A stretch of 64,000 nucleotides of DNA from Actinomycetota bacterium (GTDB taxonomy: Bacteria > Actinomycetota > Acidimicrobiia > Spongiisociales > UBA11373), in contig JAHLKU010000003.1 in NCBI GenBank assembly GCA_020444505.1, positions 21,824 through 85,823 of the forward strand. The letters run 5' to 3'. The notes below the pieces were generated by a model. It was not told where the DNA came from and did not search any database. It worked only from the letters and a program-made list of their open reading frames with translations. Made by a program: the position numbers and the translations under genes. Below are positions 4,125 to 39,046 of this stretch, in pieces. Numbering within the stretch: position 1 is the first letter of the stretch; each line of letters opens with the position of its first letter.

Positions 4125-4315
4125 CGCTCGTCCTCTGGCTGCTGCTGGCGATCGTGTCGCTGCCGCTGGCGATCCTGGCGTTGATCCTCTGGCCGATCGT
4201 GTGGCTGCTGAGCATCCCGTTCCGGCTGGTCGGCATCTCGGTGCGGGGCGTGCTCGACCTGGTGGAGGCGGTCGTACGCCTCCCCGCCCGGCTGCTGGGC
4301 GGGGGAGGGCGCTAG
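4121..4315 (+). CDS. small hydrophobic membrane protein (hypothetical, 64 aa)
   Basis: GTG start overlapping the AKR stop (GTGA). It has two predicted TM helices (LVLWLLLAIVSLPLAILALILWPIVWLLSIPF). It is in the frame of an otherwise spurious 232-aa track ORF. Confidence 0.35.
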   Translation: MTLVLWLLLAIVSLPLAILALILWPIVWLLSIPFRLVGISVRGVLDLVEAVVRLPARLLGGGGR

Positions 4316-4361
4316 CCGCCGTCTTGGCTCGGCAGCCGGTTCGTGCTGGACTGCGTTCACC

Positions 4362-5297
4362 ATGACCACGCGCGTCTCCGACCGGCTCGTCTGGGCGGTC
4401 GTCCTCCTCATCACCTTCGGGTGGGGCACGCTCCCGGTGCTGATCCGGGTGGCGCTGCGGGAGGACCTGCGCCCGCTGGTCATCGCCGCAGCACCCTCGA
4501 TCGTGGCGGCCGTCGCCCTGGCGCTGTTCCTGGTGGCGACGCGGCGCCTCCACTCGATCGGCTCCACCGAGGTCCGCATCGGGCTGGCGCTGGCGGCGTT
4601 GAGTGTGGTGCTGCCCAACCTGCTCCGCCCCCTGGCTGCCGAGCACGCGTCGGCGGGGTTCCTGGGGCTCACCTCGGCGCTGGTGCCGCTGACCACGGTG
4701 TTGCTGGCGCACTTCGTCCTCGCCGACGAACGGCTGAAGGCCGCCACGGCGGGCGGCCTGCTGCTCGGCCTGGCCGGCGTGGCGACCCTGGTGCTGTCGG
4801 GCGACTCCGGCCTCGGCGCCAAGGGCAACGTGGTGCTGGCGGCCGCCTACGCGATGGGGAGCGTGCTGTCGGTGTCGCTGTCGGCGGTGTTCGCCAAGCG
4901 CTTCGCCGGCCGGTACTCGGTGATGGGCGTGTCGTGGGTGCAGTTCGCCGCGGGGGCGGCGGTCCTGACCGCGGCAGCGCTGGTGTGGGAGGGGGTGCCG
5001 CCCAATCCGACACTGCTGGGGTGGGGCAGCCTCGTCTTCCTGGGCCTGCTCTGCACGTTCATGCCGGTGGTGCTCTTCTACTGGCTGCTGCAGCACGTCA
5101 CCGTCACCTACTCCACCATCATCGGGTATCTGATCCCGCTGGTGTCGGTGGTGGTGGGGTGGCTGTTCCTGGACGAGACCGTGGGGTGGGGGATCCTCCT
5201 CGGCGGCATCCTGATCCTCGGCGGGGTGGTCGTGACCGACCTCATCCGGGTCCGTGACGCCCGCCGGGAGCGGGCGGCCGCCGGCCGAACCCTCTGA
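4362..5297 (+). CDS. DMT superfamily (EamA-like) transporter
   Basis: 311 aa with about 10 TM segments and an EamA-like duplicated architecture. Confidence 0.75.
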   Translation: MTTRVSDRLVWAVVLLITFGWGTLPVLIRVALREDLRPLVIAAAPSIVAAVALALFLVATRRLHSIGSTEVRIGLALAALSVVLPNLLRPLAAEHASAGFLGLTSALVPLTTVLLAHFVLADERLKAATAGGLLLGLAGVATLVLSGDSGLGAKGNVVLAAAYAMGSVLSVSLSAVFAKRFAGRYSVMGVSWVQFAAGAAVLTAAALVWEGVPPNPTLLGWGSLVFLGLLCTFMPVVLFYWLLQHVTVTYSTIIGYLIPLVSVVVGWLFLDETVGWGILLGGILILGGVVVTDLIRVRDARRERAAAGRTL

Positions 5298-5378
5298 TGG
5301 CGGTGGCGCGCTGCGCTGCGATGGGGTAGGGTGACCCGGACTTGGTCTGATGGTAAGACCAACCCTCTGGGAGGCACG

Positions 5379-6656
5379 ATGCGACAGCCGCTCCGTCTCG
5401 ACGTGCACACCGTCGAGATCGACCAGATCCGCTTCGGGGACCACACCGGGGTGGACGACGGAGCCCTCGTCGTCGACCGCGACGCCCTGGCGGCCCTGAT
5501 CCTCGAGGACCCCCGGATCGCCGGCGTGGACGTCCGGATCGCCCAGCCCGGCGACGACATCCGCATCATCGGGTGCCTGGACGCCGTCGAGCCCCGCTGC
5601 AAGGTGGGAGATGGGTCGGTGTTCCCCGGGTTCCTCGGCGGCATGGAGACCGTCGGGGAGGGCGAGACCCTCCGCCTCGGCGGGGTGGCGGTGCTGGCGT
5701 CGAGCCGGTACCCGCAGCCGTTCTCAGGGCTGCTCCAGGCCCGCGAGGCGGTGGTGGACATGCGGGGGCCCACCGCCAACCTCAGCCCCTTCGGGCGGAC
5801 GCTCAACCTGGTGCTGGCCTACACCCCCAACCCCGACATCGACAACGAGGACTACGACGACGCCATCCGCCGCAGCAACCTGAGGGTGGCCGAGCACCTG
5901 GCTACGCAGGCGCTCGACGCCCCCCGCGCCTCCACCACCACGTTCGACATCTCCGAGCAGGACCCCGACCTCCCCAACGTGGTGTACTTCTACCAGTTGC
6001 AGGGCCAGGGCCCCATGGCCGACACCTACCTCTACGGCCGGGTCATCCACAACCTGGTGCCCACGGTGATGCACCCCAACGAGGCGCTCGACGGTGCCAT
6101 CGTGTGCGGGGTGTACGTGTACGGGTGCTACAAGAACGTCACCTACCTGCACCAGAACAACCCGATCATCTGGGAGTTGCAGCGCCGCCACGGCAAGGAG
6201 TTGAACTTCGCCGGGGTCGTCATCAACCGGGGCCACAACTACACCCAGGAGGACAAGGAGCGGTCCTCGCGGTGGGCGGCCAAGCTGATCGAGTTCCTCG
6301 AAGCCGACGGCGCCGTGTTCACCGCCGAGGGCGGCGGCAACTCGGCGATCGACATGATGCTCGCGGTCCAGTACCTGGAGCAGGCCGGGGTGGAGACCGC
6401 GGTGGTGTCCTCGGAGGCCGCCGGCGAGGACGGCTACGACTTCCCGCTCTTCTACACCGTGCCCGAGGCGGACGCCATCGTCAGCGTCGGGTCGGAGGAC
6501 GAGGTGTTCGACATGCCGGAGGTGGCCGAGGTCATCGGCGGCGACACGCTGTTGGACGGCCAGCCCGCCGCCGGGCCGTACCGGCTCAAGATGTACTTCC
6601 AGTTCTGCGGCACCCAGCAGGTCGGCGGCAACGTGCTCGTGGGGAGGGTCCACTGA
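5379..6656 (+). CDS. grdE: glycine/sarcosine/betaine reductase component B proprotein (GrdE/GrdG/GrdI family; alpha/gamma subunits, pyruvoyl enzyme precursor)
   Basis: N-terminus MRQPLRLDVHTVEIDQIRFGD ... DVRIAQPGDDIRIIGCLDAVEPRCKV parallels GrdE family N-termini. GGGAGG RBS upstream of ATG 5379. The stop overlaps the grdB start (TGATG). Confidence 0.75.
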   Translation: MRQPLRLDVHTVEIDQIRFGDHTGVDDGALVVDRDALAALILEDPRIAGVDVRIAQPGDDIRIIGCLDAVEPRCKVGDGSVFPGFLGGMETVGEGETLRLGGVAVLASSRYPQPFSGLLQAREAVVDMRGPTANLSPFGRTLNLVLAYTPNPDIDNEDYDDAIRRSNLRVAEHLATQALDAPRASTTTFDISEQDPDLPNVVYFYQLQGQGPMADTYLYGRVIHNLVPTVMHPNEALDGAIVCGVYVYGCYKNVTYLHQNNPIIWELQRRHGKELNFAGVVINRGHNYTQEDKERSSRWAAKLIEFLEADGAVFTAEGGGNSAIDMMLAVQYLEQAGVETAVVSSEAAGEDGYDFPLFYTVPEADAIVSVGSEDEVFDMPEVAEVIGGDTLLDGQPAAGPYRLKMYFQFCGTQQVGGNVLVGRVH

Positions 6657-7966
6657 TGGTGAGGGTCGCCCACTACATCAACCAGTTCTTCGCCGGCATC
6701 GGCGGCGAAGACAAGGCCGACCACCCCTTCGAGGTGCGCGAGGGCGCCGTCGGGCCCGGCCGGGCCGTGGAGATGGCGGGCGGTGGCGACGTGGAGATCG
6801 TCCAGACCCTGGTCTGCGGCGACAACGCCTTCCACGCCGACACCGAGGGCACCCTGGCAGCGATCGAGGCGGCCCTCGCCGAGAGCAAGCCGGACCTGCT
6901 CATCGCCGGCCCCGGGTTCAACGCCGGGCGGTACGGCCTGGCGTGCGCCGCGGTGTGCGCCGTCGCCACCGAGAAGCTGGGCATCCCGGCGCTCACCGGC
7001 GTGTACGTCGACGCCCCCGCCGTGGACGTGTACCGCAGCCGGGTGGTGATGGTGCCGACCGGCGACAGCGCGGCGGGGATGAAGGACGCCGTCGAGGGCA
7101 TGCTCCGGGTGGGCCTGCGCCTGGCGGCAGGGGAGCCGCTCGGTCCCGCCGAGGAGGACGGGCGCATCCCCATGGGCTTCCGCAAGGCCGTGGTCACCGA
7201 GACCCCGGTGGCGGCCCGGGTCGTGGACATGCTGATGGCCAAGCTGCGGGGCGAGCCGTTCACCAGCGAGGTCGCCCTGCCCGAGCCGGCCGAGGCGGTG
7301 CCGCCGGCGCCGCCGGTGGCCGACCTGTCCGGGGCGGTGGTGGCGGTGGTCACCGACGGCGGCCTGGTGCCGGTGGGCAACCCCGACGGCATCGAGTCGT
7401 CGAGCGCCACGAAGTGGGCCCGCTACCCGATCGACGACCTGGTCCGCAACGACGACCCCTCGTTCATGTCCATCCACGCCGGGTACGACTCGCAGTGGGT
7501 GGACGCCGACCCCGACCGCCTGGTGCCCATCGACGCCCTGCTGGACCTGGAGGCCGAGGGCGTGATCAAGGAGGCGCACCCCTACTACTACGTCACCACC
7601 GGCACCGGCACCACCGTCACCCACGCCGAGCGGATGGGGGAGGAGATCGCCAAGCAGTTGATCTCCGACGGCGTCCACGCCGTGCTGGTCACCAGCACCT
7701 GAGGCACCTCCACGCGTTGCGGTGCAACGCTCGCAAAGATGATCGAGAAGGCCGGCATCCCGGCGGCACACCTGGCGGCGATGACGTCGATGGCCAAGAT
7801 CGCCGGGTCGAACCGGATCATCTCCTCCGGCCTCATCCCCCATCCGGTCGGCGACCCGTCGCGCTCTCCGGAGGAGGAGCTGAAGTGGCGCACCGGGCAG
7901 GTCCGCAAGGCCCTGAACGCCGCGGCGACGCCGCTCGACGAGGCCCTGATCTTCCCGGACTGGTAA
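6656..7966 (+). CDS. grdB: glycine/sarcosine/betaine reductase selenoprotein B (GrdB/GrdF/GrdH family) with in-frame UGA (Sec) at 7700..7702
   Basis: The ORF 6656..7702 ends in ...VLVTST-UGA. Read-through continues in frame (UGTSTRCGATLAKMIEKAGIPAAH ... PHPVGDPSRSPEEELKW...) into track ORF 7739..7966. The total is 436 codons, the typical GrdB size. The flanking motif STU-GT-x-TRCGAT matches the family Sec site. A SECIS-like hairpin lies at 7714..7730. Confidence 0.8.
7714..7730 (+). promoter_or_regulatory. SECIS-like stem-loop downstream of grdB UGA (GCGTTGC-GGU-GCAACGC)
   Basis: Perfect 7-bp inverted repeat beginning 11 nt after UGA 7700..7702, with GGUG in the apical region. Spacing and position match bacterial SECIS elements. 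Confidence 0.55.
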
Positions 7967-7982
7967 TCGAGTGAGGGACGCC

Positions 7983-9410
7983 ATGATCCAACCCGCCATC
8001 CTCCACACCGCCTACGCCCTGGCCCACGCGCCGGACTTCGTCCGCTACGGCTCCAAGCCCACCAGGGAGCTGCCGGCCAACCCCGGGCTGCTGGAGGAGA
8101 TGACGGCGGCGCTGCGGCCCTGGGACGAGGTGGTGGCCTACCCGCCGAACCAGGTGTTCATCGGCAACCTGAGCCCCGACGAGCTCGCCGCCACCCCGCG
8201 GCCCTGGTACGAGCACCTGGTCCCCGACGCCTCGCCCATCGGCCCGTGGGGGCGCATCGTCACCCAGGCGGCGCTCTACGGCCTCATGAAGCTGTGCGAC
8301 GACTTCGACCTCCTGACGATCACCGAGGCGGTCGCCGCCGAGGCCCGCGAGGAGCTCACCCGCTTCGAGCACCGGCGGGACCGCATCACCGGCGTCCCGC
8401 CGGAGGACCTGGCGGCGCTCATCGGCAAGCACGACGGCCTCACCCTGTACCACCGCGGCGAGGTCGCGGGGTTCCTGCGCACCGCCCACGAGCAGGACCC
8501 CTCGCTGGACGCCCATGTGCTGTTCGAGAACCTGGCCTGCAAGGCGACGGCGGTGCTGGCCGTCAACGACGCGTTCGATGGTGGCCCCATCGGCCCCGAA
8601 GACGTCGACTACCTGCTCAACACCGGCGAGGAGGCCGTCGGCGACCGCTACCAGCGCGGCGGCGGCAGCCTGTCCAAGGCCGTCGGCGAGGTGGTGGGGT
8701 GCCTCAACGCCACCGGGTCGGACATCAAGGCGTTCTGCTCGGCCCCGGTGCACGCCATCATCTCCGCCTCGGCGATGGTGGCCTCCGGCCTCCACAAGTA
8801 CGTGGTGGTGCTCGGGGGCGGGTCGCAGGCGAAGATGGGCATGAAGTTCCGGGCCCACCTCCGCAACGGCGTCCCGGTGATGGAGGACTGCCTGGCGTCG
8901 ATGGCGTTCGTCGTCGGGCCGGACGACGGCACCGGCATGCGGGTGCGGCTCGACGTCACCGGCAAGCATCCCATCGGCGCCGGGTCGTCGGCCCAGCACG
9001 TGTACCAGGCGCTGGTGGTGGAGCCGCTGGAGCGGGCCGGCATGACCATGACCGACGTGGACCGCTACGCCGTCGAGATGCACAACCCCGAGATCACCGA
9101 ACCGGGCGACAGCGGCGACGTCCCCAAGACCAACTACCGCACGCTGGCGGCGATGGCGGTGCTGCGGGGCGAGATCGAGCGGGACCAGATGGACGAGTTC
9201 TCCGCCACCCACGGCATGCCCGGGTTCTCGCCCACCCAGGGCCACATCCCCGCCGGGGTGCCGTTCCTCGGCCACGCCCTGGCGGCCATGCGGCGCGGCG
9301 AGATGGACAACGCGATGATCGTCGCCAAGGGCAGCCTGTTCCTCGGCCGGATGACGCAACTCGTCGACGGGGTGTCGTTCCTCGTCGAGGCGCCGTCCGA
9401 GCCGTCGTGA
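7983..9410 (+). CDS. grdC: glycine reductase complex component C, beta-subunit-like protein (GrdC family, thiolase/FabH-like fold)
   Basis: Motifs PNQVFIGNLSPDELA, QRGGGSLSKA, GCLNATGSDIKAFCSAPVHA, YAVEMHNPEITEP, GHIPAGVPF and GSLFLGRMTQLVDGVSF resemble the GrdC family. ATG 7983 is preceded by GAGGGA. The track start at 7971 is an upstream GTG. Confidence 0.65.
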   Translation: MIQPAILHTAYALAHAPDFVRYGSKPTRELPANPGLLEEMTAALRPWDEVVAYPPNQVFIGNLSPDELAATPRPWYEHLVPDASPIGPWGRIVTQAALYGLMKLCDDFDLLTITEAVAAEAREELTRFEHRRDRITGVPPEDLAALIGKHDGLTLYHRGEVAGFLRTAHEQDPSLDAHVLFENLACKATAVLAVNDAFDGGPIGPEDVDYLLNTGEEAVGDRYQRGGGSLSKAVGEVVGCLNATGSDIKAFCSAPVHAIISASAMVASGLHKYVVVLGGGSQAKMGMKFRAHLRNGVPVMEDCLASMAFVVGPDDGTGMRVRLDVTGKHPIGAGSSAQHVYQALVVEPLERAGMTMTDVDRYAVEMHNPEITEPGDSGDVPKTNYRTLAAMAVLRGEIERDQMDEFSATHGMPGFSPTQGHIPAGVPFLGHALAAMRRGEMDNAMIVAKGSLFLGRMTQLVDGVSFLVEAPSEPS

Positions 9411-9447
9411 CCGTGATGGATCGAGCAGAGGAAGGAGGTGCACTGCA

Positions 9448-9915
9448 ATGGATCTGAAGGGAAAGCGCATCGTCGCCATCGGCGAGCGCGAGGGCATCAA
9501 CGGCCCCAGCCTGAAGCTGCTCGCCGAGTCGGCGGGTGCGACGGTGGTCTTCAGCGTCACCCAGTGCTTCGTCTGAACGGCTGGTGGAGCCATGGACCTG
9601 GACGACCAGGCGAACGTGAGTCGCCTGGCCGAGGAGTCCGGGACCGACGACATGCTCGTCGTCCTGGGCCAGCCGGATCCCAACAGTGCGGGCCTCTTCG
9701 CAGAGACCGTCACTCGAGGCGATCCGACCTGGGCAGGTCCGTTGGCCGGAGTCCCGTTGGGGCTCCCCGTGTATCACATCCTCGAAGAGGAGATCAAGGA
9801 GTCGATGGACCCCGACCTGTATCAGGAGCACGTGGGCCTGATGGAGTTGTCGGCGGACGTCGACGAGATCGTGAAGTGGGTCAAGTTCTACCGCGAGGGC
9901 GGCGGCGAGGCCTGA
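9448..9915 (+). CDS. grdA: glycine/sarcosine/betaine reductase selenoprotein A (GrdA) with in-frame UGA (Sec) at 9574..9576
   Basis: Strong RBS GAAGGAGG 8 nt upstream of ATG 9448. The N-terminal ORF MDLKGKRIVAIGEREGINGP ... VVFSVTQCFV ends at UGA. It continues in frame as TAGGAMDLDDQ ... ETVTRGDPTWAGPLAGVPLGLPVYHILEEEIKE (track ORF 9592..9915). The CFV-U-TA(A/G)GAMDL motif is the canonical GrdA Sec site. Confidence 0.85.
9579..9591 (+). promoter_or_regulatory. candidate SECIS apical hairpin downstream of grdA UGA (GGCU-GGUGG-AGCC); uncertain
   Basis: Short 4-bp stem with a GGUGG loop starting 2 nt after the UGA. Alternative stems exist at 9597..9610 and 9606..9628. The exact SECIS fold cannot be resolved by eye. 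Confidence 0.25.
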
Positions 9916-9931
9916 CAGTCAGGAGACGACG

Positions 9932-11395
9932 ATGTCCCAGGAGATCATGAAGCTCGACATGTTCGTCCACGGCGAGTGGCGCGCCGGATCGACCGGCGAC
10001 GTCGTCGAGGTGATGAACCCGGCCAAGGACGAGGTGCTCGCCACCGTGCCCGACGGCGGCGCCGAGGACCTCGACGCCGCGATGGCGTCGGCGGCCGAGG
10101 GCCTGAAGGTGTGGCGCGCCACCCATCCCCGCACGCGGGCCCAGGTCATCGCCAAGATGGCCGCGACCCTGCAGGAGCGGGCCCAGGAGTACGCCGAGTT
10201 GTACAGCCTCAACTCGGGCGGCTCGATCGGCACCGGGCTGTGGACCATGTACGACGTGGCCGGCCGGCGCTTCGAGTACTACGCCGGGCTCGCCGACAAG
10301 GTCCGGGGCGACACGTTCGTCACCCCCGGCGAGTTCCTCAGCTACACGCTGCGGGAGCCGGTGGGCATCACCGGGCACATCATCCCGTGGAACGGGCCGC
10401 TGTGGATCGGCAGCCGCACCATCGCCCCGGCGCTGGCCGCAGGGAACTCGGTGGTCGTGAAGCCGTCGAGCGAAGCGCCCGTCACCCTGCTCAAGTTCGC
10501 CGAGATGGCCGTGGAGTGCGGCCTGCCGCCCGGGGTGCTCAACGTGGTCACCGGCCGGGGCAGCGGCATGGGCGACCTGTTCACCCGCCACGAGGCCCTC
10601 GACGGCATCTACTTCACCGGGTCCACGTGGACCGGGCGGAAGATCCTCGCGAACACCGCGACCACCAACGTGCGGACGGTGATGGAACTGGGCGGCAAGT
10701 CGCCCAACATCGTGTTCGCCGACGCCGACATGGAGGCTGCCCTCGACGGGGCGATCATGGCGATCTTCGCCAACTCGGGGCAGATCTGCGTGGCCGGGTC
10801 CCGGCTGCTGGTGCAGGCGTCCATCCACGACGAGTTCGTGGAGCGCCTCGCCGCCAAGGCCGCCGAGATCACCATCGGCGGCCCCGAGGCGAACGCCCTC
10901 ATGGGCCCGCTGATCACCTCCGCCCAGCGCGAGAAGGTGCTCGAGTACATCGCCTCCGGCAAGGAGGAGGCCGACCTGGTGACCGGCGGCGGCGTCCCGG
11001 ACGACCCGGCGCTGCAGAAGGGCTACTTCGTGGCGCCGACGATCTTCGACGGCGTGCCCAACACCGCCCGGATCGCCCGCGAGGAGATCTTCGGGCCGGT
11101 GCTCTCCGTCACCTCGTTCGAGGACTTCGACGAGGCGATCACCCTGGCCAACGACACCGAGTACGGCCTGGCGTCGGCGGTGTGGACCGGCGACGTCGCC
11201 ACGGCGCACAACGCAGCACAGGCGCTGGAGGCCGGCCAGGTGTACATCAACCACTACTACACGGCCGCCTTCGAGACGAGCCGGTCGCCGTACAAGGCGA
11301 GCGGCCACGGCATGAGCGAGGGCCCCGACGCCATCTACGAGTACCTCAACCAGAAGGCCGTCAGCGTCAAGCTGGGCGAAGGCGAGGGGTGGTAG
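9932..11395 (+). CDS. NAD(P)-dependent aldehyde dehydrogenase family protein
   Basis: 487 aa with an ALDH catalytic Cys motif (GQICVAGSRLLV), ELGGKSP, and the N-terminal Rossmann GxxxxG region. Confidence 0.85.
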   Translation: MSQEIMKLDMFVHGEWRAGSTGDVVEVMNPAKDEVLATVPDGGAEDLDAAMASAAEGLKVWRATHPRTRAQVIAKMAATLQERAQEYAELYSLNSGGSIGTGLWTMYDVAGRRFEYYAGLADKVRGDTFVTPGEFLSYTLREPVGITGHIIPWNGPLWIGSRTIAPALAAGNSVVVKPSSEAPVTLLKFAEMAVECGLPPGVLNVVTGRGSGMGDLFTRHEALDGIYFTGSTWTGRKILANTATTNVRTVMELGGKSPNIVFADADMEAALDGAIMAIFANSGQICVAGSRLLVQASIHDEFVERLAAKAAEITIGGPEANALMGPLITSAQREKVLEYIASGKEEADLVTGGGVPDDPALQKGYFVAPTIFDGVPNTARIAREEIFGPVLSVTSFEDFDEAITLANDTEYGLASAVWTGDVATAHNAAQALEAGQVYINHYYTAAFETSRSPYKASGHGMSEGPDAIYEYLNQKAVSVKLGEGEGW

Positions 11396-11418
11396 CGCAC
11401 CGGGCAGCGGAAGCGTGT

Positions 11419-11438
11419 ATGGTCTGACCATAAGACCA
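11419..11438 (+). promoter_or_regulatory. FadR-type GntR operator-like palindrome ATGGTCtGACCAT with a third GACCA half-site
   Basis: Perfect 6-1-6 palindrome containing the TGGTCnGACCA core, in a relatively AT-rich 97-bp gap upstream of the adh-like gene (GTG 11492). The related site 5343..5361 lies upstream of grdE. Confidence 0.5.
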
Positions 11439-11491
11439 AGACGGCCCGCGGTGGCAGGCGCCGCGGCCGACCGAGACGATCTGGAGGCGTT

Positions 11492-12511
11492 GTGAAGGTT
11501 GCAGTGTTCACCGGGGTAGGCAGCGTGGAGATCCGGGAGGAACCGGATCCGGTGGCCGGCCCCCAGCAGGTCGTCATCGAGGTGGCCGCGTGCGGGATCT
11601 GCACGTTCGAGCGGCGCCTCTTCGCGGGCGACAAGCAGTGGTACCCGGTGAACCCGGGTCACGAGGCCTCCGGCACGGTCGTCGCCGTCGGCGAGGCGGT
11701 CGACGGTCTCCCCGGCTCGCCGCAGGTGGGCGACCGGGTCACCTTCGACCTCCTCACCCGCTGCGGCACCTGCAACCAGTGCCGCCGGGGCAAGTCGTCG
11801 CTGTGCCGGATGCGGCAGGGCCGCGTTCTCAGCGACGGCACGGTCTCGTTCGGTGGGTTCGCCGGCAAGGTCGCCATCGACGCCAAGTCGGTGTACCCGA
11901 TCGGCGATGCCCCGTTCACCCACGCCGCCATGGGCGAGCCGATCGCCTGCTGCGTGCACTCCATCCGCCAGGGCGGCCTGCTGCCCCGCGACCGGGTGGC
12001 CATCATCGGCGGCGGCCTGATGGGCCGCCTCCACCTGGCGCTGGCCCGCCTGGAGGGCGCCGGCCCGATCGGCGTCATCGACGTCTCGGAGCAGCGCCTC
12101 GCCGAGGCGACCGCCGCCGGCGCCGACTGGGTGGCCACCCCCGAGACCGCCCTCGAGGTGGGCGGCAAGCAGGACGTGGTCTTCGTCACCGCCATGGCAG
12201 GGGTGGACCTGGCCGTGGAGATGGCCGACCTCGGCGGCACGGTGGTCCTGTACAGCGCATTCGACAAGGACCTGCCGGCCACCGTCGGCGCGGACAAGTC
12301 GCACCGCGAGGAGGTCGCCATCGTCGGGGCCTTCAGCCAGGAGCCCGCCGACTGGCGCACCGGCTCGGCCCACATCCGCAGCGGCGTCATCGCCGACGCC
12401 CTCGATGCGCTGGTCACCGCCGAGTACCCGTTCTCCCAGGTGGAGGACGCCCTCAAGCTGGTGACCTCCGAGCCCACGTACCGCGTGTTCGTCGAGCCCG
12501 AGAGCGAGTGA
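11492..12511 (+). CDS. zinc-dependent alcohol dehydrogenase (MDR family; threonine/sorbitol dehydrogenase-like)
   Basis: Catalytic Zn ligands (C..H..E) and a structural Zn motif CGTCNQCRRGKSSLC. Rossmann motif GGGLMG. GTG start with GGAGG upstream. Confidence 0.8.
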   Translation: MKVAVFTGVGSVEIREEPDPVAGPQQVVIEVAACGICTFERRLFAGDKQWYPVNPGHEASGTVVAVGEAVDGLPGSPQVGDRVTFDLLTRCGTCNQCRRGKSSLCRMRQGRVLSDGTVSFGGFAGKVAIDAKSVYPIGDAPFTHAAMGEPIACCVHSIRQGGLLPRDRVAIIGGGLMGRLHLALARLEGAGPIGVIDVSEQRLAEATAAGADWVATPETALEVGGKQDVVFVTAMAGVDLAVEMADLGGTVVLYSAFDKDLPATVGADKSHREEVAIVGAFSQEPADWRTGSAHIRSGVIADALDALVTAEYPFSQVEDALKLVTSEPTYRVFVEPESE

Positions 12512-13824
12512 TGCCGGCAGAGGTCGTCGCCGGCGTCGACGTGGGCAGCAGTGCGGCGCGCGCCGTCGCGATCGATCGCGACGGCGCCGTGGTGGCCTCC
12601 TCCCGGGCCCCGTACCCCGCACACGACGGCAGCCTGGCCGGCGAGGTGGACCCCGCGGTCTGGCTCGCCGGCCTCGTCGCCGCCCTCGACGGGCTCGGTG
12701 CGCGGCCCCTGGCGCTCGGCGCCGGCGGCCACGGCCCCACCACGGTCGCCTCGACCGGCGAGCTGGCGCTGACGTTCCGCCACCCCGCCGGCGCCACCGA
12801 GGGCCCGGTGGGCCAGCACGCCGCCCACCTGCGGGTGTTGCGGGACCGCCTCGGCGACCACGTCGAGCCCCGCCAGATGTGGGACCACCTGCTGGCCCGT
12901 CTCGGTGGGGACCCCTCCACGCAGAGCATGTGGCCGGGTGAGGAGCCCCTGGAAGGCTTCGGGTCGCCGATCCCGGCCGGCACCGCCGTCGGGACCAGCG
13001 CCGGCGACCACGGCGAGCCGGAGGGGATGACCCTGGTGCCCGGCGCCAACGACGCCTACATGACCTCGTGGGCGTCGGCCATCGACACCCCCGGCCGGGC
13101 CTTCGACCCGGGCGGCAAGACCGGCGGGCTCGGCGTGGCGATCCGCGCCGAGGGGGAGCACGCCGAGATCGCCAAGTTCGGCATGCCGAGCCACGTGCCG
13201 GGCGTCGCCATCGTGGGGGGCCCGGTGGCCAGCCACGGGGCGATGATGGACTGGTGGTCGGCCGTCACCGGCCGCCCCGTCGCGGAACTGCTGGACCTGG
13301 CCGCCGACGTCGAGCCCGGCTCGCACGGCGTGATGGTGCTGCCGTTCCTCGAGGGGGAGCGTGCGCCCCGCTGGAACCTGGGCCTGCGGGCCGAGATCAC
13401 CGGCATCGGCGCCGAGACCGGCGTCGGAGTGCTGACCAGGGCGCTGGTGGAGTCCACGGCCTACGGCCTCGCCCACATCGCCCGCGACCTGGCCGGGCAC
13501 GGCATCGCGCTGGAGCGGGTCGTGTCGAGCGGCGGCCCGGCCCGCAGCCCGCTGTGGACGTCGATCAAGGCTGCTGTGCTGGACGTGCCGGTGGATGTGC
13601 CGGACTGCGACGAGATGAGCGCCTACGGGGCGGCTCTGGCCGCCGGGGCGGCGCTGGGATGGTGGCCGCGCCCGGGGGAGGGGGTCCCCGGCGACTGGCC
13701 GATGCCGGAGGTGACCACCTACGAGCCGAAGCCGCTCGAGGTGTATCGCAAGGGATTGGACCGGTTCATCGAACTCGGCGACGAGGCGGTGGCCCGGCTC
13801 GAGAGAAGCCAACCGAACGAGTAA
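12511..13824 (+). CDS. FGGY-family carbohydrate kinase (xylulokinase/LsrK-like)
   Basis: N-terminal VAGVDVGSSAARAVAID and C-terminal FGGY motifs (SGGPARSPLWTSIKAAVLDVPV ... AYGAALAAG). The start overlaps the upstream stop. Confidence 0.75.
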   Translation: MPAEVVAGVDVGSSAARAVAIDRDGAVVASSRAPYPAHDGSLAGEVDPAVWLAGLVAALDGLGARPLALGAGGHGPTTVASTGELALTFRHPAGATEGPVGQHAAHLRVLRDRLGDHVEPRQMWDHLLARLGGDPSTQSMWPGEEPLEGFGSPIPAGTAVGTSAGDHGEPEGMTLVPGANDAYMTSWASAIDTPGRAFDPGGKTGGLGVAIRAEGEHAEIAKFGMPSHVPGVAIVGGPVASHGAMMDWWSAVTGRPVAELLDLAADVEPGSHGVMVLPFLEGERAPRWNLGLRAEITGIGAETGVGVLTRALVESTAYGLAHIARDLAGHGIALERVVSSGGPARSPLWTSIKAAVLDVPVDVPDCDEMSAYGAALAAGAALGWWPRPGEGVPGDWPMPEVTTYEPKPLEVYRKGLDRFIELGDEAVARLERSQPNE

Positions 13825-13833
13825 GGAGAACGC

Positions 13834-14607
13834 ATGGAATACATGTCCTCGGCCATCGGGGCCGCCAAGACCCGCCGGGCCTCCCGGTTCCTCGAGGAGG
13901 ACGGCCGCGGCTTCCTGGTGGCCATCGACATGCAGTCGGCGTCGGGATCGGGCCCCGACCTGGACGTCGTCGAGAAGATCGCAGCCGGCGGCCCCAACGG
14001 CATCCTGGTGTCCTGGCAGATCGCTCGCCGCTACCCCGAGGCGTTCCGCAACTGCGGCATGATCCTCCGCATCGACGGCACCACCACGATGCTCGGGAAC
14101 TACGGCGCCGGCGACCAGTTCGCCCAGATGTACGAGATCGAGATGGCCGCCCGCATCGGCGCCGACGCCGTGGTCTGCATGGCGTTCCCCGGCGCCGACG
14201 ACGACGTCGTCGGCATGCGCAAGCTGGTCGCCATGGTCAACGAGGCCGAGAAGGTCGGCATGCCGGTGATCGCCGAGTCGATCCCCGGGTCGTGGGCCAA
14301 GACCGTCCCGTGGGACGCCGAGCACATCGCCAAGGCCGCCCGCATCTGCGTCGAGGTGGGCGCCGACGCCATCAAGACGATGATGCCGGAGGACCCCTCG
14401 GAGATCCCCGATGTCATCGCCAACATCGAGGCCCCGGTGTTCTGCCTGGGCGGTCCGAAGAAGGAGACCGAGGACGAGGCGGTCGAGTACGCCCGCACCG
14501 TCGTGGCCGCCGGTGCCAGCGGCATCGCCTTCGGCAGGAACGTGTTCGGGGCCAAGGACCCGACCGCCATGGTGCAGCGCCTGTACGAAGCCGTCCACGG
14601 CGCCTGA
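13834..14607 (+). CDS. class I aldolase, DhnA/FbaB family (DeoC/LacD-type TIM barrel; LsrF-like)
   Basis: 257 aa with DhnA-family motifs (GFLVAIDMQ ... RIDGTTTML ... GADAVVCMAFPG ... GMPVIAE ... FCLGGPKKETEDEAVEYARTVVAAGASGIAFGRNVF). Confidence 0.7.
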   Translation: MEYMSSAIGAAKTRRASRFLEEDGRGFLVAIDMQSASGSGPDLDVVEKIAAGGPNGILVSWQIARRYPEAFRNCGMILRIDGTTTMLGNYGAGDQFAQMYEIEMAARIGADAVVCMAFPGADDDVVGMRKLVAMVNEAEKVGMPVIAESIPGSWAKTVPWDAEHIAKAARICVEVGADAIKTMMPEDPSEIPDVIANIEAPVFCLGGPKKETEDEAVEYARTVVAAGASGIAFGRNVFGAKDPTAMVQRLYEAVHGA

Positions 14608-14618
14608 GGAGGAGCGAC

Positions 14619-15134
14619 ATGGCAGAAGAAGCCTTCACCGAAGCCTGCGTCGAGGTGATGGCGCGCACCGCCTCGGCGGTCGCCATCCTGACGCTGGAGG
14701 ACGGCGACGGCGAGAAGCATGGCATGACGATCACGTCGCTGTCGTCGGTCTCGTCGGAGCCGCCGTCGGTGGTGGTCTGTGTGGGCGAGGGCGCCTCGTC
14801 GCACCGCTGGCTCGTGCCAGGCGCCCGGTTCGGCGTGAGCCTGCTGGGCGCCGGCCAGGTGCCGTACTCCCTGGGGTTCTCCTGGGCGAAGTCCGACGAC
14901 CCGTTCGCCGACTTCCCGTGGGAGCGCGCCGAGGACGGCACGCCCTGGCTCAGCGAGGCCGCCGCCCACATGATCTGTGAGGTGGAGCAGGTGACCCCGT
15001 ACCACGGCAGCGCCGTGGTCATGGCCCGCGTGGTCGGCTGTGGGGTGCACAAGGACGAGACCCTGGTCTACTGGCGACGCAAGTACTTCGACGGCCTCAC
15101 CGAGGCCGAAGGAGGGGTGACCGGCACGTGGTGA
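14619..15134 (+). CDS. flavin reductase family protein (HpaC/RutF-like)
   Basis: 171 aa with flavin-reductase-like domain motifs (AVAILTLEDGDG ... GMTITSLSSVSSEPPSVVVCV). GAGGAGGAG RBS. It lies in the frame of a largely spurious 688-aa track ORF. Confidence 0.7.
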   Translation: MAEEAFTEACVEVMARTASAVAILTLEDGDGEKHGMTITSLSSVSSEPPSVVVCVGEGASSHRWLVPGARFGVSLLGAGQVPYSLGFSWAKSDDPFADFPWERAEDGTPWLSEAAAHMICEVEQVTPYHGSAVVMARVVGCGVHKDETLVYWRRKYFDGLTEAEGGVTGTW

Positions 15135-15616
15135 CCCCGGGCGGAGGCGCGAGGAGCGGGCCGGGCAGGACCCGGCTGACCCACCTCGCCCTCCGCGTCC
15201 ACGACCTGGAGCGCTCGATCGACTGGTACGAGCGGTACACGCCGATGCGCACCCTCAAGCGCTTCTCGGACGCCTACGGCGTGGGTGCCTGGCTGGCCGA
15301 CCCGGCCGACGGCGCGTGTCCGTTCACCATGGCCCTGTCGCAGTTCGACCCGGACAAGGATCCCTTCGCCTACGCCCCGGCTGCGGTGCTGGGACCCTTC
15401 GCCCACCTCGGGTTCGAGGTCGGCAGCCGCGACCAGGTGGATGCCATCGCCGCGATGGCCGAGGCGGAGGGCATCCTCAGCTACCCGGTCACCGAGATGC
15501 CGTATCCCATCGGGACGATCTGCTTCGTGGAGGACCCCGACGGCAACACCGTCGAGTTCTCCTTCGGGCAGGGCACCTATCCGATCTGGGACGAGGAGTG
15601 GGGGAGCGAAGCATGA
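15128..15616 (+). CDS. VOC family protein (glyoxalase/bleomycin-resistance/dioxygenase fold)
   Basis: LTHLALRVHDLERSIDWYERY ... GFEVGSRDQVDAI ... FVEDPDGNTVEF are typical VOC beta-alpha-beta-beta-beta motifs. The exact start is uncertain. Confidence 0.65.
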   Translation: MVTPGGGARSGPGRTRLTHLALRVHDLERSIDWYERYTPMRTLKRFSDAYGVGAWLADPADGACPFTMALSQFDPDKDPFAYAPAAVLGPFAHLGFEVGSRDQVDAIAAMAEAEGILSYPVTEMPYPIGTICFVEDPDGNTVEFSFGQGTYPIWDEEWGSEA

Positions 15617-16386
15617 GTGCCGACCGCCCCTTCGGGCCCGTGGAACGAGCCACCGTCCCCGAGCAGGTGCGCGACGACATCCACCGCCGCATCATCAGCG
15701 GCGAGATCCCGCCCGGCTCGCCGCTGCCGGCGGAGCGGGTGCTGGCGGAGCAGTTCGCCGTCGCCCGCACCTCGGTGCGGGAGGCCATCCAGGGGCTCAT
15801 CGCCCTCGGCGTCATCGAGCGGCGCGGGAACCGCTCCTACGTCGCCGAGCGCCTCCCCGACGCCGAGCTGCACCGCCCCGACGGCAGCAAGCGCTCATTG
15901 CGCGAGGCCCTGGAGGCGCACCACGTGCTGGAGCGCTCGCTGTTCGAGATGGCGGCCGCCCGGGCCACGATGCGGGAGCGCTCCGAGGCCCTGGCGCTGG
16001 CCCGCCGCCCCGCCCCCGCCGACGTCGGGGAGTTCCTCATCGTCGAGCGCCAGTTCCACGCCGCCATCGCCGGGGCGTGTGACAACCCGGTGCTGGTGGA
16101 GGTGTACGGCCGGATCATGGACGTGCTCATGGGCACCGACGAGGTGGTGGCCCTCGTGCTGGGGGTGGCGCCCGGCGAGGACCCGGCGCCCGCGATAGCC
16201 AAGGCCGCCTCCGAGCACCTGCGCATCGCCGAGGCGTACGTGGACCAGGACCTCACGAGGATGATGGAGGAGTGGGAGCACCACCGCGGGCCTTCGGCCT
16301 GGCGGCAGGCGGGCCGGGTGCGCCGCCCGGCCGGCCCCACCAGGGCGAGGGAGGCCTGGGGGCTCGAGAGGACGGTGGGGTCGTGA
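15613..16386 (+). CDS. GntR family transcriptional regulator, FadR subfamily (FCD domain)
   Basis: N-terminal winged HTH (PLPAERVLAEQFAVARTSVREAIQGLIALGVIERRGNRSYV) followed by an all-helical FCD-like domain. The start overlaps the upstream stop (ATGA). Confidence 0.75.
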   Translation: MSADRPFGPVERATVPEQVRDDIHRRIISGEIPPGSPLPAERVLAEQFAVARTSVREAIQGLIALGVIERRGNRSYVAERLPDAELHRPDGSKRSLREALEAHHVLERSLFEMAAARATMRERSEALALARRPAPADVGEFLIVERQFHAAIAGACDNPVLVEVYGRIMDVLMGTDEVVALVLGVAPGEDPAPAIAKAASEHLRIAEAYVDQDLTRMMEEWEHHRGPSAWRQAGRVRRPAGPTRAREAWGLERTVGS

Positions 16387-16511
16387 CCGGGGAGTGGCGC
16401 ACCCGTGTCCCCACGCCGGACGGCTCCGGATGGCGCCGCCGGGACGAAGACGTTGCCGCGAACGACACGGAATCGAGGAGTACCTGCACACACCCGGGAG
16501 CCCGCACGGCT

Positions 16512-16533
16512 CCGCCGGTGCCGTCACCGGCGG
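16512..16533 (+). other. GC-rich hairpin (CCGCCGGTG-ccgt-CACCGGCGG) in the gntR–bmp intergenic region
   Basis: Perfect 9-bp stem with a 4-nt loop, about 40 nt upstream of the BMP lipoprotein start. It could be a terminator for the upstream operon or a regulatory leader structure. Confidence 0.4.
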
Positions 16534-16573
16534 GCCGGGCTCCCAGAGCAACCGATTGGGAGGAACACCGACC

Positions 16574-17734
16574 ATGAGACGACTTGGTATCAAGTTGGTG
16601 GCGCTCATCGCCGTCCTGGGGCTGATCGCAGCCGCATGCGGCGACGACGACGCCGACACGACGGCCGCGCCGTCGACGACCGAGGCCGCTACGACGACCG
16701 AGGCCGCGACGACGACCGAGGCCGCGACGACGACCGAGGCCGCGACGACGACCGAGGCGATGGCCAACCCCGCCGACTTCAACGGCGACGGCGTGGTCCG
16801 CATCGGTGTGGCCACCGACGGCCCGCGCGACGACGGCGCCTACTACCAGGCGCTGGTGGAGAGGGTCGAGCGGATCTCGGCGGACAACGGCTTCGAAGCG
16901 CCGGTGGTCGTCGACGAGATCGACACGGCCAACTCCCGCGTCGAGCTGGAGAACCTGGCCGCCCAGAACGTGGACATCATCGCCATCGGCTCGGAGGCCG
17001 TGGCGCGGGACAACGAGGATCTCTTCACCACCTACGACGAGATCTTCTGGTACTGCAACTGCGGGTCCGGCTATGCCGACACCCCGGGCCTCCTCCGCAG
17101 CGCCGACAGCGGCGCCGAGCTGAACATCTCGGCCGGCTATGCCGCCGGGCTGCTGCTCCAGGAGCGTGGTGGCGACAGCGTGGCCTTCCTGGGCTGCTGT
17201 GACCTCCCCTTCGAGTTCGAGTCCCTGTGGGGCTTCGAATTCGGCCTGGCGCAGGTGGACCCGACGTTCACCGTCACCTACACGCCGACCGGCCAGTTCC
17301 CGTACGACTTCAACAACGTCGCCGGTGCGACGGAGGCGTACAACAACGCGGTCGCCGAGGGTGCGGATGCGGTCTACCCGTTCCTGGGCGGGGCGCACGA
17401 GCCCATCGTGCAGCTCGCCAATGCGGACGGGCTGATCGTGAACACGGCCGGTTCGTCGCAGGGTTGTGAGCGCGACGACCTCGACTACGACTTCGAGGTC
17501 ATGTTCGACGCCGGCGACTACCTCGAGCCGCTGTTCGAGGAGATCCTGGCCGGGACGGCCGAAGAGGGCACCGCCCGCTACTTCACCGTGGGCATCGACC
17601 CGCAGGTGGGTGCGGTGTTCTGCGACGCCACCCCCGAGCAGGTGCAGATGCTGGCGGACTTCAACGCCCGCATCGGGGCCGGCGACTTCGCCGACAAGAT
17701 CTACGAGATCCTGTCCGAGGCGTACGGCTTCTAG
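16574..17734 (+). CDS. BMP-family ABC transporter substrate-binding lipoprotein (PnrA-like; nucleoside/purine-type)
   Basis: Lipoprotein signal (LIAAAC lipobox), low-complexity (TTTEAA)n linker, then a BMP/PnrA-like periplasmic binding fold. Confidence 0.75.
   Translation: MRRLGIKLVALIAVLGLIAAACGDDDADTTAAPSTTEAATTTEAATTTEAATTTEAATTTEAMANPADFNGDGVVRIGVATDGPRDDGAYYQALVERVERISADNGFEAPVVVDEIDTANSRVELENLAAQNVDIIAIGSEAVARDNEDLFTTYDEIFWYCNCGSGYADTPGLLRSADSGAELNISAGYAAGLLLQERGGDSVAFLGCCDLPFEFESLWGFEFGLAQVDPTFTVTYTPTGQFPYDFNNVAGATEAYNNAVAEGADAVYPFLGGAHEPIVQLANADGLIVNTAGSSQGCERDDLDYDFEVMFDAGDYLEPLFEEILAGTAEEGTARYFTVGIDPQVGAVFCDATPEQVQMLADFNARIGAGDFADKIYEILSEAYGF
16673..16762 (+). repeat. five tandem 18-bp repeats (ACGACGACCGAGGCCGCG) encoding the (TTTEAA)n linker of the lipoprotein
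   Basis: Direct tandem repeat visible in the DNA and as EAATTT x4-5 in the protein, between the lipobox and the binding domain. Confidence 0.9.
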
Positions 17735-17744
17735 CCGCTCGATT

Positions 17745-17780
17745 GCCCGTGGCGGGCGCCTCCGGGCGCCCGCCACGGGC
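17745..17780 (+). other. perfect 16-bp-stem intercistronic hairpin between the SBP and ATPase genes
   Basis: GCCCGTGGCGGGCGCC-tccg-GGCGCCCGCCACGGGC immediately after the SBP stop (17734) and before the ATPase RBS. Confidence 0.6.
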
Positions 17781-17814
17781 CCGACCGACACCCGAGGGAG
17801 GAGCCACGACGACC

Positions 17815-19389
17815 ATGCCGGCCGAACACAGCGGTGACGCACCGGTCCTGCAGTTGCGGGAGATGACGAAGCGCTACGGCGAGGTCGTCGCGTGCGACCA
17901 CGTCGACCTCGACCTGCATCGCGGCGAGATCCACGGGATCCTCGGCGAGAACGGGGCGGGCAAGTCCACCCTCATGAAGATGGTCATCGGCCTGGCGCTG
18001 CCGGACGCCGGGACCATCCGCCTCGACGGGGAGGCGGTGCGCTTGCACGACCCCGTCCAGGCCGCCCGGCACGGCATCGGCATGGTCCACCAGCACTACA
18101 GCCTGGTGGGCGCCCTGACCGTGTGGGAGAACGTGGCGCTCGGAGAGAAGGGCGCCCTCGACCCCGGGTCCACCCGCGACCGGGTCGTCGAGATCACCGA
18201 GCGGTACGGCCTCGAGGTCGACCCGGACGCCTACGTCCGCGACCTCACCGCCGGCGTCCGCCAGCGGGTCGAGATCATCAAGTGCCTCCGTCACGAGCCG
18301 CGCATCATCATCCTGGACGAGCCCACCGCGGTGCTCACGCCGGCGGAGTCGGAGCACCTGTTCGAGGTGCTGGGCGAAGGCGTGCGGCGCGAGGGGTGGG
18401 CGGTGGCCCTGGTGAGCCACAAACTGGACGAGGTGCTCGCCGCCACCGATCGCATCACCATCATGCGCAACGGCCTGGTGGTGGACCGGGTGGCCACCGC
18501 GGACGCCGACGCCCACTCGCTCGCCAGGGAGATGGTGGGCCGCGAGGTCACCCTCCGCACCGGGGCGGCGGCGATCGGTTCGGTGGAGGCTCCCGCTGCG
18601 GCCGCCGGGGAGGCGGCAGAGGTGAAGGGCGAGCCGATCCTGGAGGTGCGCGACGCCGCCACCCGCGCCGCCGACGGCAGGGTGCTGCTCGACGGCCTCT
18701 CGCTGGAGGTGCACCCCGGCGAGGTGGTGGGTGTCGCCGGCGTCGAGGGGAACGGCCAGACGCCGCTGGTCAGGGTGCTGGAGAGCCTTCTCCGCCTGGA
18801 GACCGGCAGCGTCCGGGTGGACGGAGAGGAGATCCCCACCTGCAGGGCAGGTGCCATGGGGGCCGCCGGCATCGCCGTCATCCCCGCCGACCGGCACCAC
18901 TCGGGGTGCGTGCCCGACATGACGGTCGCCGAGAACCTGGTGCTCGGGTCGGTGGACCGGTTCGCCGAGTGGGGCCTGCTGAAGCGGGAGGACATCAAGG
19001 CGCACGCCAGGGTGCTGATCGAGGAGTTCGACATCCACTGCCCGTCGTGCGACACGCCGCTCGGCCAGTTGTCGGGCGGGAATCAGCAGCGGGTGGTGCT
19101 GGCCCAGGCCCTGTCGGTGGGCCCCAAAGTGCTGGTGGCCCACCAGCCCACCAGGGGCCTCGACGTCGGGGCCATCGAGTACATCGGGGGGCGCATCACG
19201 GCGGCCGCCGAGTCGGGGATCGGGGTGCTGCTCCTGTCCACCGACCTGGGCGAGATCGCCGCCCTCTCCGACCGCATCGTCGTCATCTACGAGGGCAGGA
19301 TCATCGGGGAGATGAGCCGGGCCGAGTTCGACATGGAGCGCCTCGGCCTGCTGATCGGCGGCTCCACCGCCGGGGAGGACGCCGCATGA
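17815..19389 (+). CDS. ABC transporter ATP-binding protein with duplicated ATPase domains (sugar/nucleoside CUT2-type)
   Basis: Two Walker A (GENGAGKST; GVEGNGQT), two signature (LSGG) and Walker B motifs. GAGGGAGG RBS. Confidence 0.85.
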   Translation: MPAEHSGDAPVLQLREMTKRYGEVVACDHVDLDLHRGEIHGILGENGAGKSTLMKMVIGLALPDAGTIRLDGEAVRLHDPVQAARHGIGMVHQHYSLVGALTVWENVALGEKGALDPGSTRDRVVEITERYGLEVDPDAYVRDLTAGVRQRVEIIKCLRHEPRIIILDEPTAVLTPAESEHLFEVLGEGVRREGWAVALVSHKLDEVLAATDRITIMRNGLVVDRVATADADAHSLAREMVGREVTLRTGAAAIGSVEAPAAAAGEAAEVKGEPILEVRDAATRAADGRVLLDGLSLEVHPGEVVGVAGVEGNGQTPLVRVLESLLRLETGSVRVDGEEIPTCRAGAMGAAGIAVIPADRHHSGCVPDMTVAENLVLGSVDRFAEWGLLKREDIKAHARVLIEEFDIHCPSCDTPLGQLSGGNQQRVVLAQALSVGPKVLVAHQPTRGLDVGAIEYIGGRITAAAESGIGVLLLSTDLGEIAALSDRIVVIYEGRIIGEMSRAEFDMERLGLLIGGSTAGEDAA

Positions 19390-38668: not shown

Positions 38669-38701
38669 CAACATTGTGCTATCATAACTAGCACAATGTT
38701 G
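38669..38701 (+). promoter_or_regulatory. AT-rich perfect 13-bp inverted repeat CAACATTGTGCTA-N7-TAGCACAATGTTG overlapping the start codon of the YtrA-like GntR gene (putative autoregulatory operator)
   Basis: Striking low-GC palindrome in a ~70% GC background. The right arm contains the ATG at 38696. It is preceded by a GGGAGGCCTCCC palindrome (38653..38664) just after the SDR stop. Confidence 0.6.
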
Positions 38702-39046
38702 CTGCGCATCGACCCGTCGAGCGGCGTGCCGCTCTACCTCCAGTTGTCGGCGGCGCTGCGGCGCGCCCTCGCCGAGGGCGAGGTCGATCCGGGCGACCGC
38801 CTGCCCCCGGCGCGCGAGATGGCCGCCTCCCTCGGGGTGAACATGCACACCGTGCTGCGCTCGTACCGCGAACTGCGCGACGAGGGCCTGCTCGACCTCC
38901 GGCGCGGAAGGGGCGCCGTCGTGTGCGAAGGCGCCGGTGGCGACGCCGCCCTCCGGGCGATGGTGTCCGGCCTGGCCGCCGAAGCCCGCCGCCAGGGGCG
39001 CACGCCCGACGAGATCGGAGCCATGATCCGAGAGGAGATGCGATGA
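38696..39046 (+). CDS. GntR-family transcriptional regulator, short YtrA-like (HTH domain only, 116 aa)
   Basis: Winged HTH (GDRLPPAREMAASLGVNMHTVLRSYRELRDEGLLDLRRGRGAVV) with a short C-terminal helix, typical of the YtrA subfamily. Confidence 0.75.
   Translation: MLLRIDPSSGVPLYLQLSAALRRALAEGEVDPGDRLPPAREMAASLGVNMHTVLRSYRELRDEGLLDLRRGRGAVVCEGAGGDAALRAMVSGLAAEARRQGRTPDEIGAMIREEMR

Follow-up and report, generated by a model that had tools for sequence, protein, structure and literature searches.

A conserved 19-nt FadR-type element upstream of an ADH-kinase-aldolase operon is a probable operator of an FCD-GntR regulator in an Acidimicrobiia-like MAG

Background

Several described operators of the FadR subfamily resemble the site analysed here. 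Site 1 of the experimentally proven operator of Corynebacterium glutamicum LldR, TtgTGGTCTGACCAtgA, lies in the cgl2917-lldD promoter at positions -4 to +13, where it binds one dimer and promotes the cooperative binding of a further dimer to a neighbouring, weaker site (PMC2602784). The LldR operator is quoted as an example of the FadR-subfamily consensus TNGTNNNACNA. Close packing is known also from E. coli NanR, several dimers of which crowd on the (GGTATA)3 operator, where each dimer contacts a consensus box through one wHTH and non-consensus DNA through the other; the cooperativity of NanR relies on a 32-residue N-terminal extension (PMC8012715). On statistical grounds, Suvorova et al. (2015) reported extra half-sites 7-12 nt from the centres of GntR palindromes in 13 FadR ortholog groups, with about half the score (PMC4494728). 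The spacing of the half-sites is GT-N3-AC in the FadR type and GT-N4-AC in the HutC type.

Here we describe an element of this kind in a 64-kb stretch of DNA, analysed as a whole and called the window below. An initial annotation made from the letters alone had read a palindrome between an aldehyde dehydrogenase gene and an alcohol dehydrogenase gene as an operator. We compared the site with related loci, with the regulator encoded nearby and with the described systems.

Results

Gene content of the cluster

The gene map was obtained from GC3 frame analysis and from Pfam and NCBIfam searches, and all genes lie on the plus strand:

4362-5297, plus strand, EamA
5379-6656, plus strand, GrdE-like
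6656-7966, plus strand, GrdB-like (Sec)
7971-9410, plus strand, reductase component C beta (NCBIfam reduct_C_beta, 595 bits, above the cut-off)
9448-9915, plus strand, GrdA-like (Sec)
9932-11395, plus strand, aldehyde dehydrogenase (aldh), betaine-aldehyde-dehydrogenase-like
11396-11491, gap holding the site
11492-12511, plus strand, Zn-ADH (adh; Pfam)
12508-13824, plus strand, FGGY kinase (Pfam)
13834-14607, plus strand, DeoC/LacD-type aldolase (Pfam)
about 14607-15134, plus strand, flavin reductase (flr; Pfam)
15128-15616, plus strand, VOC/glyoxalase (voc; Pfam)
15613-16386, plus strand, gntR, with GntR wHTH and FCD (Pfam)
from 16574, plus strand, Bmp-type ABC transporter

The upstream operon, which runs from the GrdE-like gene to aldh (5379-11395), ends just before the site. 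From adh to gntR, the junction sequences show that all neighbouring genes overlap or are separated by a few nucleotides, and these genes can reasonably be taken as a single transcription unit. The ATG of gntR overlaps the stop codon of voc as ATGA, which couples gntR translationally to voc. If adh to gntR is one transcription unit and the site is its operator, gntR would be autoregulated.

Two genes of the upstream operon appear to encode selenoproteins. The GrdB-like gene has an in-frame TGA at 7700-7702 (...VLVTST-U-GTSTRCG...), apparently read through as in a selenoprotein, and directly after it the Rfam model SECIS_4 matches positions 7703-7739 with 28.3 bits (E = 0.007), which does not reach the gathering score of 38. 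The TGA of the GrdA-like gene (9574-9576) lies inside the canonical CFV-U-TAGGAMD motif. The operon holds a single component-C-like subunit (7971-9410); we saw no gene for component C alpha among its members, and the ALDH follows GrdA instead. The B subunits score far below the equivalog cut-offs for sarcosine, betaine and glycine. A selenium-dependent complex of the glycine/sarcosine/betaine-reductase type beside ADH-kinase-aldolase genes looks unusual for a 73% GC Acidimicrobiia-like MAG, and a literature search combining Acidimicrobiia with glycine reductase found no paper.

Anatomy of the site

The signals considered in and around the two operator regions of the window are as follows:

5304..5332, plus strand, putative promoter of the grdE operon, inferred from a -35 TGGCGC (5304-5309), a 17-nt spacer and a -10 TAGGGT (5327-5332)
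5343..5361, minus strand, sister operator (site 1), TGGTCTGATGGTAAGACCA, upstream of the grdE-like gene, in the opposite orientation
11418..11423, plus strand, -10-like TATGGT (TAnnnT) of a putative internal adh promoter, overlapping the left arm of the operator
11420..11438, plus strand, conserved 19-nt element TGGTCTGACCRTMWGWCCR, here site 2 with the sequence TGGTCTGACCATAAGACCA, palindrome and third half-site GACCA
11483..11487, plus strand, GGAGG, ribosome-binding site of adh, assigned from the sequence

The plus strand around the site reads gtgtATGGTCTGACCATAAGACCAAgac. Just as the initial annotation had described, positions 11419-11431 (ATGGTCTGACCAT) are a perfect 13-nt palindrome of the form 6-1-6, ATGGTC-T-GACCAT, followed by AA and by a further GACCA at 11434-11438. 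Its core, GT-CTG-AC, is a FadR-type box. The proposed FadR consensus core could be confirmed as well, as TGGTC-T-GACCA fits the FadR-subfamily consensus GTM-N0-1-KAC, in its longer form NyGTM-N0-1-KACNy, or TNGTNNNACNA, reading GT-C-T-G-AC. The third GACCA has its centre at 11436 and the palindrome at 11425, a distance of 11 nt. The 19-nt element contains three half-sites, namely the perfect box TGGT-CTG-ACCA and the extra GACCA, and within it GTCTGACCA is directly repeated with an offset of 8 nt.

The gap reported between aldh and adh exists and extends from 11396 to 11491, between the aldh stop codon TAG (11393-11395) and the adh start codon GTG (11492). Its length is 96 nt and not 97, and calling it low in GC was generous, with 68.8% vs 73.1% for the window, which is only slightly lower. 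The adh start lies 54 nt downstream of the 11420-11438 site. The reverse complement of site 1, TGGTCTTACCATCAGACCA, is identical to site 2 at 17 of 19 positions.

The 11-nt core TGGTCNGACCA with up to one mismatch was found 4 times in the window against 3.0 expected, which is no enrichment, and the 13-mer, again with up to one mismatch, once against 0.08 expected. The frame TGGTCT-N7-AGACCA has two exact copies in the 64 kb against 0.00 expected from 100 shuffles; these are sites 1 and 2, both intergenic and both located before operons of one cluster. Because the 11-nt core occurs at chance frequency, the significance of the site rests on the 19-nt element and its conservation and not on the short palindrome. 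A third exact core, TGGTCCGACCA, at 29648-29658 was considered as a further operator and rejected, as it lies inside a coding sequence, lacks the extended 19-nt frame and is probably there by chance.

Conservation and co-occurrence with gntR

We scanned the genome collection with the ADH protein and obtained 24 loci, 20 from Acidimicrobiia/Actinomycetota MAGs with an ADH identity of 64-80% and 4 that are distant. Orthologs were mapped by tblastn, and a PWM built from the adh-upstream sites was applied with a threshold of 14 bits. The gntR ortholog is present together with flr, voc and aldh in 12 loci (L001-L010, L018, L019); eight others (L011-L017, L020) keep adh-FGGY kinase-DeoC aldolase-bmp-ABC and have no gntR. 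Conservation in related genomes, to which the initial annotation had tied its reading, was seen in all 12 of the gntR-bearing loci and in none of the 12 that lack gntR (matches above 14 bits), a pattern confounded with phylogeny, as the gntR-bearing loci are the closer relatives, also sharing flr, voc and aldh. Every PWM match is intergenic, located before grdE, adh or bmp, or before aldh/EamA where the gene order differs.

The adh-upstream element occurs in 11 of the 12 gntR-bearing loci (it was lost in L002) and additionally in L027, and the grdE-upstream site is conserved in L001-L005, L018 and L019. The 5343 site and the adh site are equally conserved, so the adh site cannot be given the rank of the primary operator. 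A third operator, GTTGGTCTGACCATCAGTCCAAC, lies between gntR and bmp in seven loci (L004 12635, L005 15076, L007 8126, L008 8100, L018 15009, L019 12061 and L027 10864); it was sought in the corresponding gap of the window (16387-16573) and is absent there, as it is from the closest relative, L001.

We aligned 30 sites from 14 loci, which gave the consensus TGGTCTGACCRTMWGWCCR with T3, G4, G5, T6, C7, A10, C11, T14, G17 and C19 invariant. The third half-site, which the initial annotation had pointed out in this one sequence, is present in 30 of the 30 sites and is as conserved as the palindrome. The functional unit is the element of 19 nt, not the 13-nt palindrome alone. Between the window and L001 a block of 29 nt around the site is identical and the flanks differ, the upstream flank being diverged and carrying an indel. 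The site tracks adh and not aldh: in L006 it follows riboflavin-synthesis genes, and in L010 it is separated from aldh by 4 kb and several unrelated genes and still stands before adh.

L002 differs from the other gntR-bearing loci. It keeps gntR and the grdE operator, and the adh-upstream operator (6249-6328) is reduced to the remnant AATGACCAAC. The genes from grd to gntR probably form one operon in this locus. As L002 has the regulator without the site, the adh site is dispensable in at least one lineage.

A metagenome scan with the 19-mer pattern returned at least 80 loci with a GC content of 32-74%. Using an HMM of the regulator family, we found an FCD-GntR gene on 25 of 80 contigs among the matches listed, and on 12 of 25 among the matches listed that have at least 1.5 kb on both sides; the gene is usually less than 1.5 kb from the site. 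Judged by its sequence, the element belongs to a broad class of predicted FCD-GntR operators.

The regulator

The product of gntR has 257 aa, and Pfam recognises in it a GntR domain (62.4 bits, 3.2e-17) and an FCD domain (46 bits, 8.3e-12), both above the cut-offs. The locus encodes an all-helical FCD effector domain together with the GntR wHTH, and the FCD domain assigns the regulator to the FadR subfamily. In the homolog search, which returned many orthologs, the regulator was 100% identical to a database protein (P0001), which comes from an Actinobacteria MAG and is annotated there simply as a GntR-family regulator. The alignment of the wHTH begins near residue 15 of 257, leaving ~14 residues before the wHTH, and the domain aligns well with PdhR and Rv0494.

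We considered the protein as an ortholog of NanR, LldR, GlcC, PdhR or FadR and rejected all of them, as all scores are far below the NCBIfam cut-offs. The best match was NanR with 73.5 bits vs 260; LldR gave 63.4 vs 311, PdhR 52.8 vs 330 and FadR 30 vs 189. The label "repressor for pyruvate dehydrogenase complex" (PdhR), which JGI gives to orthologs, was also discarded as an automatic transfer. PDB sequence searches gave weak family-level matches only, with no close solved homolog or DNA complex; the match to 2DI3 (E = 4.3e-8) covers the N-terminal part only.

The homolog search revealed also a group of 238-aa paralogs, 44-47% identical to the regulator. In the recognition helix and wing they hardly differ from the window regulator (VARTSVREA...ERRGNRSYVAERLPD), and their FCD domains are different. 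These paralogs (L025 9796-12020, L028 4910-5982) belong to a separate cluster with Rieske oxygenases, VOC, cupin, hydantoinase A/B and AMP-ligase, and in that unrelated cluster several copies of the three-box element flank them, e.g. TATGGTCTGACCATCAGTCCACC and AGTGGTCTGACCAACTGACCATA. The paralog clusters and the metagenome contigs extend the match between this wHTH type and this motif type beyond a single synteny block. Cross-regulation is possible if such a paralog occurs in the genome of the window. Apart from gntR, the 64-kb window yielded a single GntR-family gene, a YtrA-like ORF at about 38690-39046 (about 115 aa, MLLRIDPSSGVPLYLQL...), which we rejected as a binder of the site, being a short YtrA-type protein, and no other FadR-type gene was detected there.

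Promoter context

In most relatives the left arm of the adh-class site is preceded by TGC, which gives TGCTATGGT, similar to an extended -10 (TGnTATGGT). The window and L001 read GTGTATGGT, which lacks the TGn, and no convincing -35 is found in them. The relatives lacking gntR keep TGCTACGGT at the same place before adh, without the rest of the operator, which suggests that TATGGT/TACGGT may be the ancestral -10 of the adh promoter and that the operator was built over it. The initial annotation had put a probable internal promoter into the gap. This is plausible, given the fit to TAnnnT, TGCTATGGT in relatives and the loci L006 and L010, where adh is not preceded by aldh and the site is kept, but the signals in the window are weaker, with no TGn or -35, and we consider an internal promoter in the window about equally likely to be present or absent. 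A promoter and terminator scan of 11000-11900 with sigma-70 rules of the E. coli type found neither, such rules being uninformative for a 73% GC actinomycete.

The hexamers and spacing of the putative grdE promoter are the same in L001, and operator 1 lies at about +4 to +22 relative to it. The bmp-class sites of relatives come with textbook actinobacterial promoters, TGGAC-N17/18-TAnnnT, the operator being located about 10 nt downstream of the -10.

An RNA element was rejected as a reading of the site, where an Rfam scan of 4000-18000 was empty; with a spacer of 1 nt, the palindrome has no way to fold into an RNA hairpin and must act as DNA. Immediately downstream of the operator, in the would-be 5′UTR of adh, there is a GC-rich stem-loop at 11442-11469 (GGCCC-GCGGTG...GCCGCGGCC). 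Its folding energy is no better than that of shuffled sequences (z = -1.2), and relatives have hairpins of different sequences there. In the relatives without gntR, TGCTACGGTCATTCC is found before adh. In two of them, L014 and L020 (locus position about 9935-9975, about 60 nt upstream of adh), an inverted repeat GGTCATTC-N10-GAATGACC, with one mismatch in L020, includes that sequence and may be the operator of another regulator.

Discussion

The regulator of the FadR subfamily (GntR wHTH + FCD) at 15613-16386 probably uses the element at 11420-11438 as its operator. That the element is an operator is, on sequence grounds, a prediction in which we have high confidence, as against the promoter claim. 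What we observed is the sequence of the element, how it is conserved, that it co-occurs with the regulator, and which family the regulator belongs to; from these we infer binding, stoichiometry, repression as against activation, the transcription start and the effector. The idea of the initial annotation, an operator for adh-kinase-aldolase-flr-voc-gntR with autoregulation by the last gene, appears well founded in view of the regulator family, the core consensus and the conservation.

Without ligand, a dimer of the regulator would occupy the perfect box TGGTCTGACCA, and a second dimer or subunit, bound cooperatively, would probably contact the third half-site GACCA, 8 nt further. The bound protein would occlude the internal promoter, the left arm coinciding with the -10-like TATGGT. 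It would also block read-through from the upstream grd-aldh operon, as is expected from the lack of a terminator between aldh and the site. The grd-aldh operon would be controlled through its own operator copy (5343-5361), just downstream of its putative promoter. Binding of a pathway metabolite to the FCD domain would release the repressor and induce adh-kinase-aldolase-flr-voc together with gntR, a negative autoregulation.

This picture includes an internal promoter, and it is possible, though in our view rather doubtful, that there is none and that the site is a roadblock or second operator only. In that case, grdE to gntR would form one transcript from 5304-5332, and the repressor at 11420-11438 would stop the polymerase or stabilise repression together with site 1. 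Such a long transcript is favoured by the gap of only 96 nt with no terminator found (the 11442-11469 hairpin, with z = -1.2, lacks significance), by the absence of TGn and -35 from the window and L001, and by L002, where the site is lost and the genes are probably transcribed as one operon. A promoter at the site is favoured by TATGGT fitting TAnnnT and TGCTATGGT in relatives, by L006 and L010, in which the adh operon stands by itself and has the site in the DNA upstream of it, and by the gntR-less relatives, which keep TGCTACGGT before adh. The roadblock is compatible with the operator function proposed above.

The identity of the protein and the sign of its effect can also be read differently. 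We consider it unlikely that the main binder of the site is a paralogous FCD-GntR from another part of the genome. Motifs of this type are widespread, and in the 44%-identical paralog, which comes with the same motif in other clusters, the recognition helix and wing are nearly unchanged, but in the 24 scanned loci the motif is present exactly where the gntR of the cluster is present, and the 64-kb window encodes no other FadR-type protein. Some FadR-subfamily members activate transcription, and the regulator might be an activator at the site, as FadR is at fabA. This is very improbable, as in all three site classes the operator either overlaps the -10 or follows a clear -35/-10 pair at about +4 to +25, and these are the positions of repressors such as LldR (-4 to +13) and NanR. 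A chance palindrome, or a HutC/DasR-type dre-like site unrelated to the cluster regulator, is effectively refuted by conservation. It is true that the 11-nt core alone occurs at chance frequency and that TGGTCT-GACCA resembles the DasR dre, TGGTCTAGACCA; the 19-nt frame is nevertheless highly non-random and conserved, the spacing is GT-N3-AC and not the GT-N4-AC of HutC, the regulator has an FCD and not a UTRA domain, and no HutC/UTRA regulator is encoded in the cluster.

With the site as an operator of the FCD-GntR repressor, the data would provide a regulatory map for an uncultured Acidimicrobiia cluster, in which two operons in the window and three in relatives would be tied to one autoregulated repressor. 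A single regulon would link the selenocysteine-containing glycine/sarcosine/betaine-reductase-like module, the ADH-kinase-aldolase module and, in relatives, the ABC transporter, and sharing a regulon supports the view that the Grd-like module, the ADH-kinase-aldolase module and the transporter act on one substrate. The defined DNA-protein pair offers a route to the pathway inducer via ligands that release the regulator from the 19-nt DNA.

A broader proposal is more speculative, and we put it forward only tentatively. The regulator and its paralogs may form an uncharacterised, widespread FCD-GntR clade (metagenome contigs of 32-74% GC) whose operator would be an obligate three-box element of 19 nt, TGGTCTGACC-RTMWG-WCCR, bound cooperatively by two dimers in a NanR-like manner without the N-terminal extension. 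The paralogs would have one DNA specificity and different ligand domains, and the regulator-operator pair would gate a selenoprotein Grd-type reductase pathway. If true, several catabolic clusters per genome could be cross-wired, and the ligand of the regulator would be a direct handle on the substrate of the Grd-type pathway.

Comparison with known systems

The operator is nothing new in principle, being a textbook FadR-type box with a known kind of extra half-site, and it involves no new mechanism. A literature search for the 19-mer or its halves led to the LldR paper only. The LldR operator has an identical 11-nt core (TGGTCTGACCA), 12 of the 13 palindrome nucleotides match (gTGGTCTGACCAt), and LldR is likewise a FadR-subfamily regulator (PMC2602784). 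In contrast, the window regulator is not an LldR equivalog (63 bits vs 311, and only E = 4.3e-8 for PDB 2DI3), the LldR regulon consists of lactate permease and lactate dehydrogenase whereas the cluster in the window has no lactate genes, and the extra box here is a single half-site 8 nt away and not a second palindrome. The E. coli FadR/PdhR boxes (TGGTnnnACCA type) have the same symmetry and the same GT-N3-AC spacing, but the regulon described here lacks both pdh and fad genes.

NanR is similar in being a FadR-subfamily repressor and in its repeated boxes, which follow each other closely downstream of the RNA polymerase site. It differs in its GGTATA repeats, where the boxes here are inverted and direct TGGTC/GACCA, and in the 32-residue extension, which the window regulator does not have. 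The extra half-sites of Suvorova et al. are the nearest parallel to the third box, which belongs to a FadR-subfamily site and lies 11 nt from the palindrome centre (PMC4494728). Their half-sites are weaker, whereas the third box (T14, G17, C19, C20) varies no more than the palindrome among our 30 sites.
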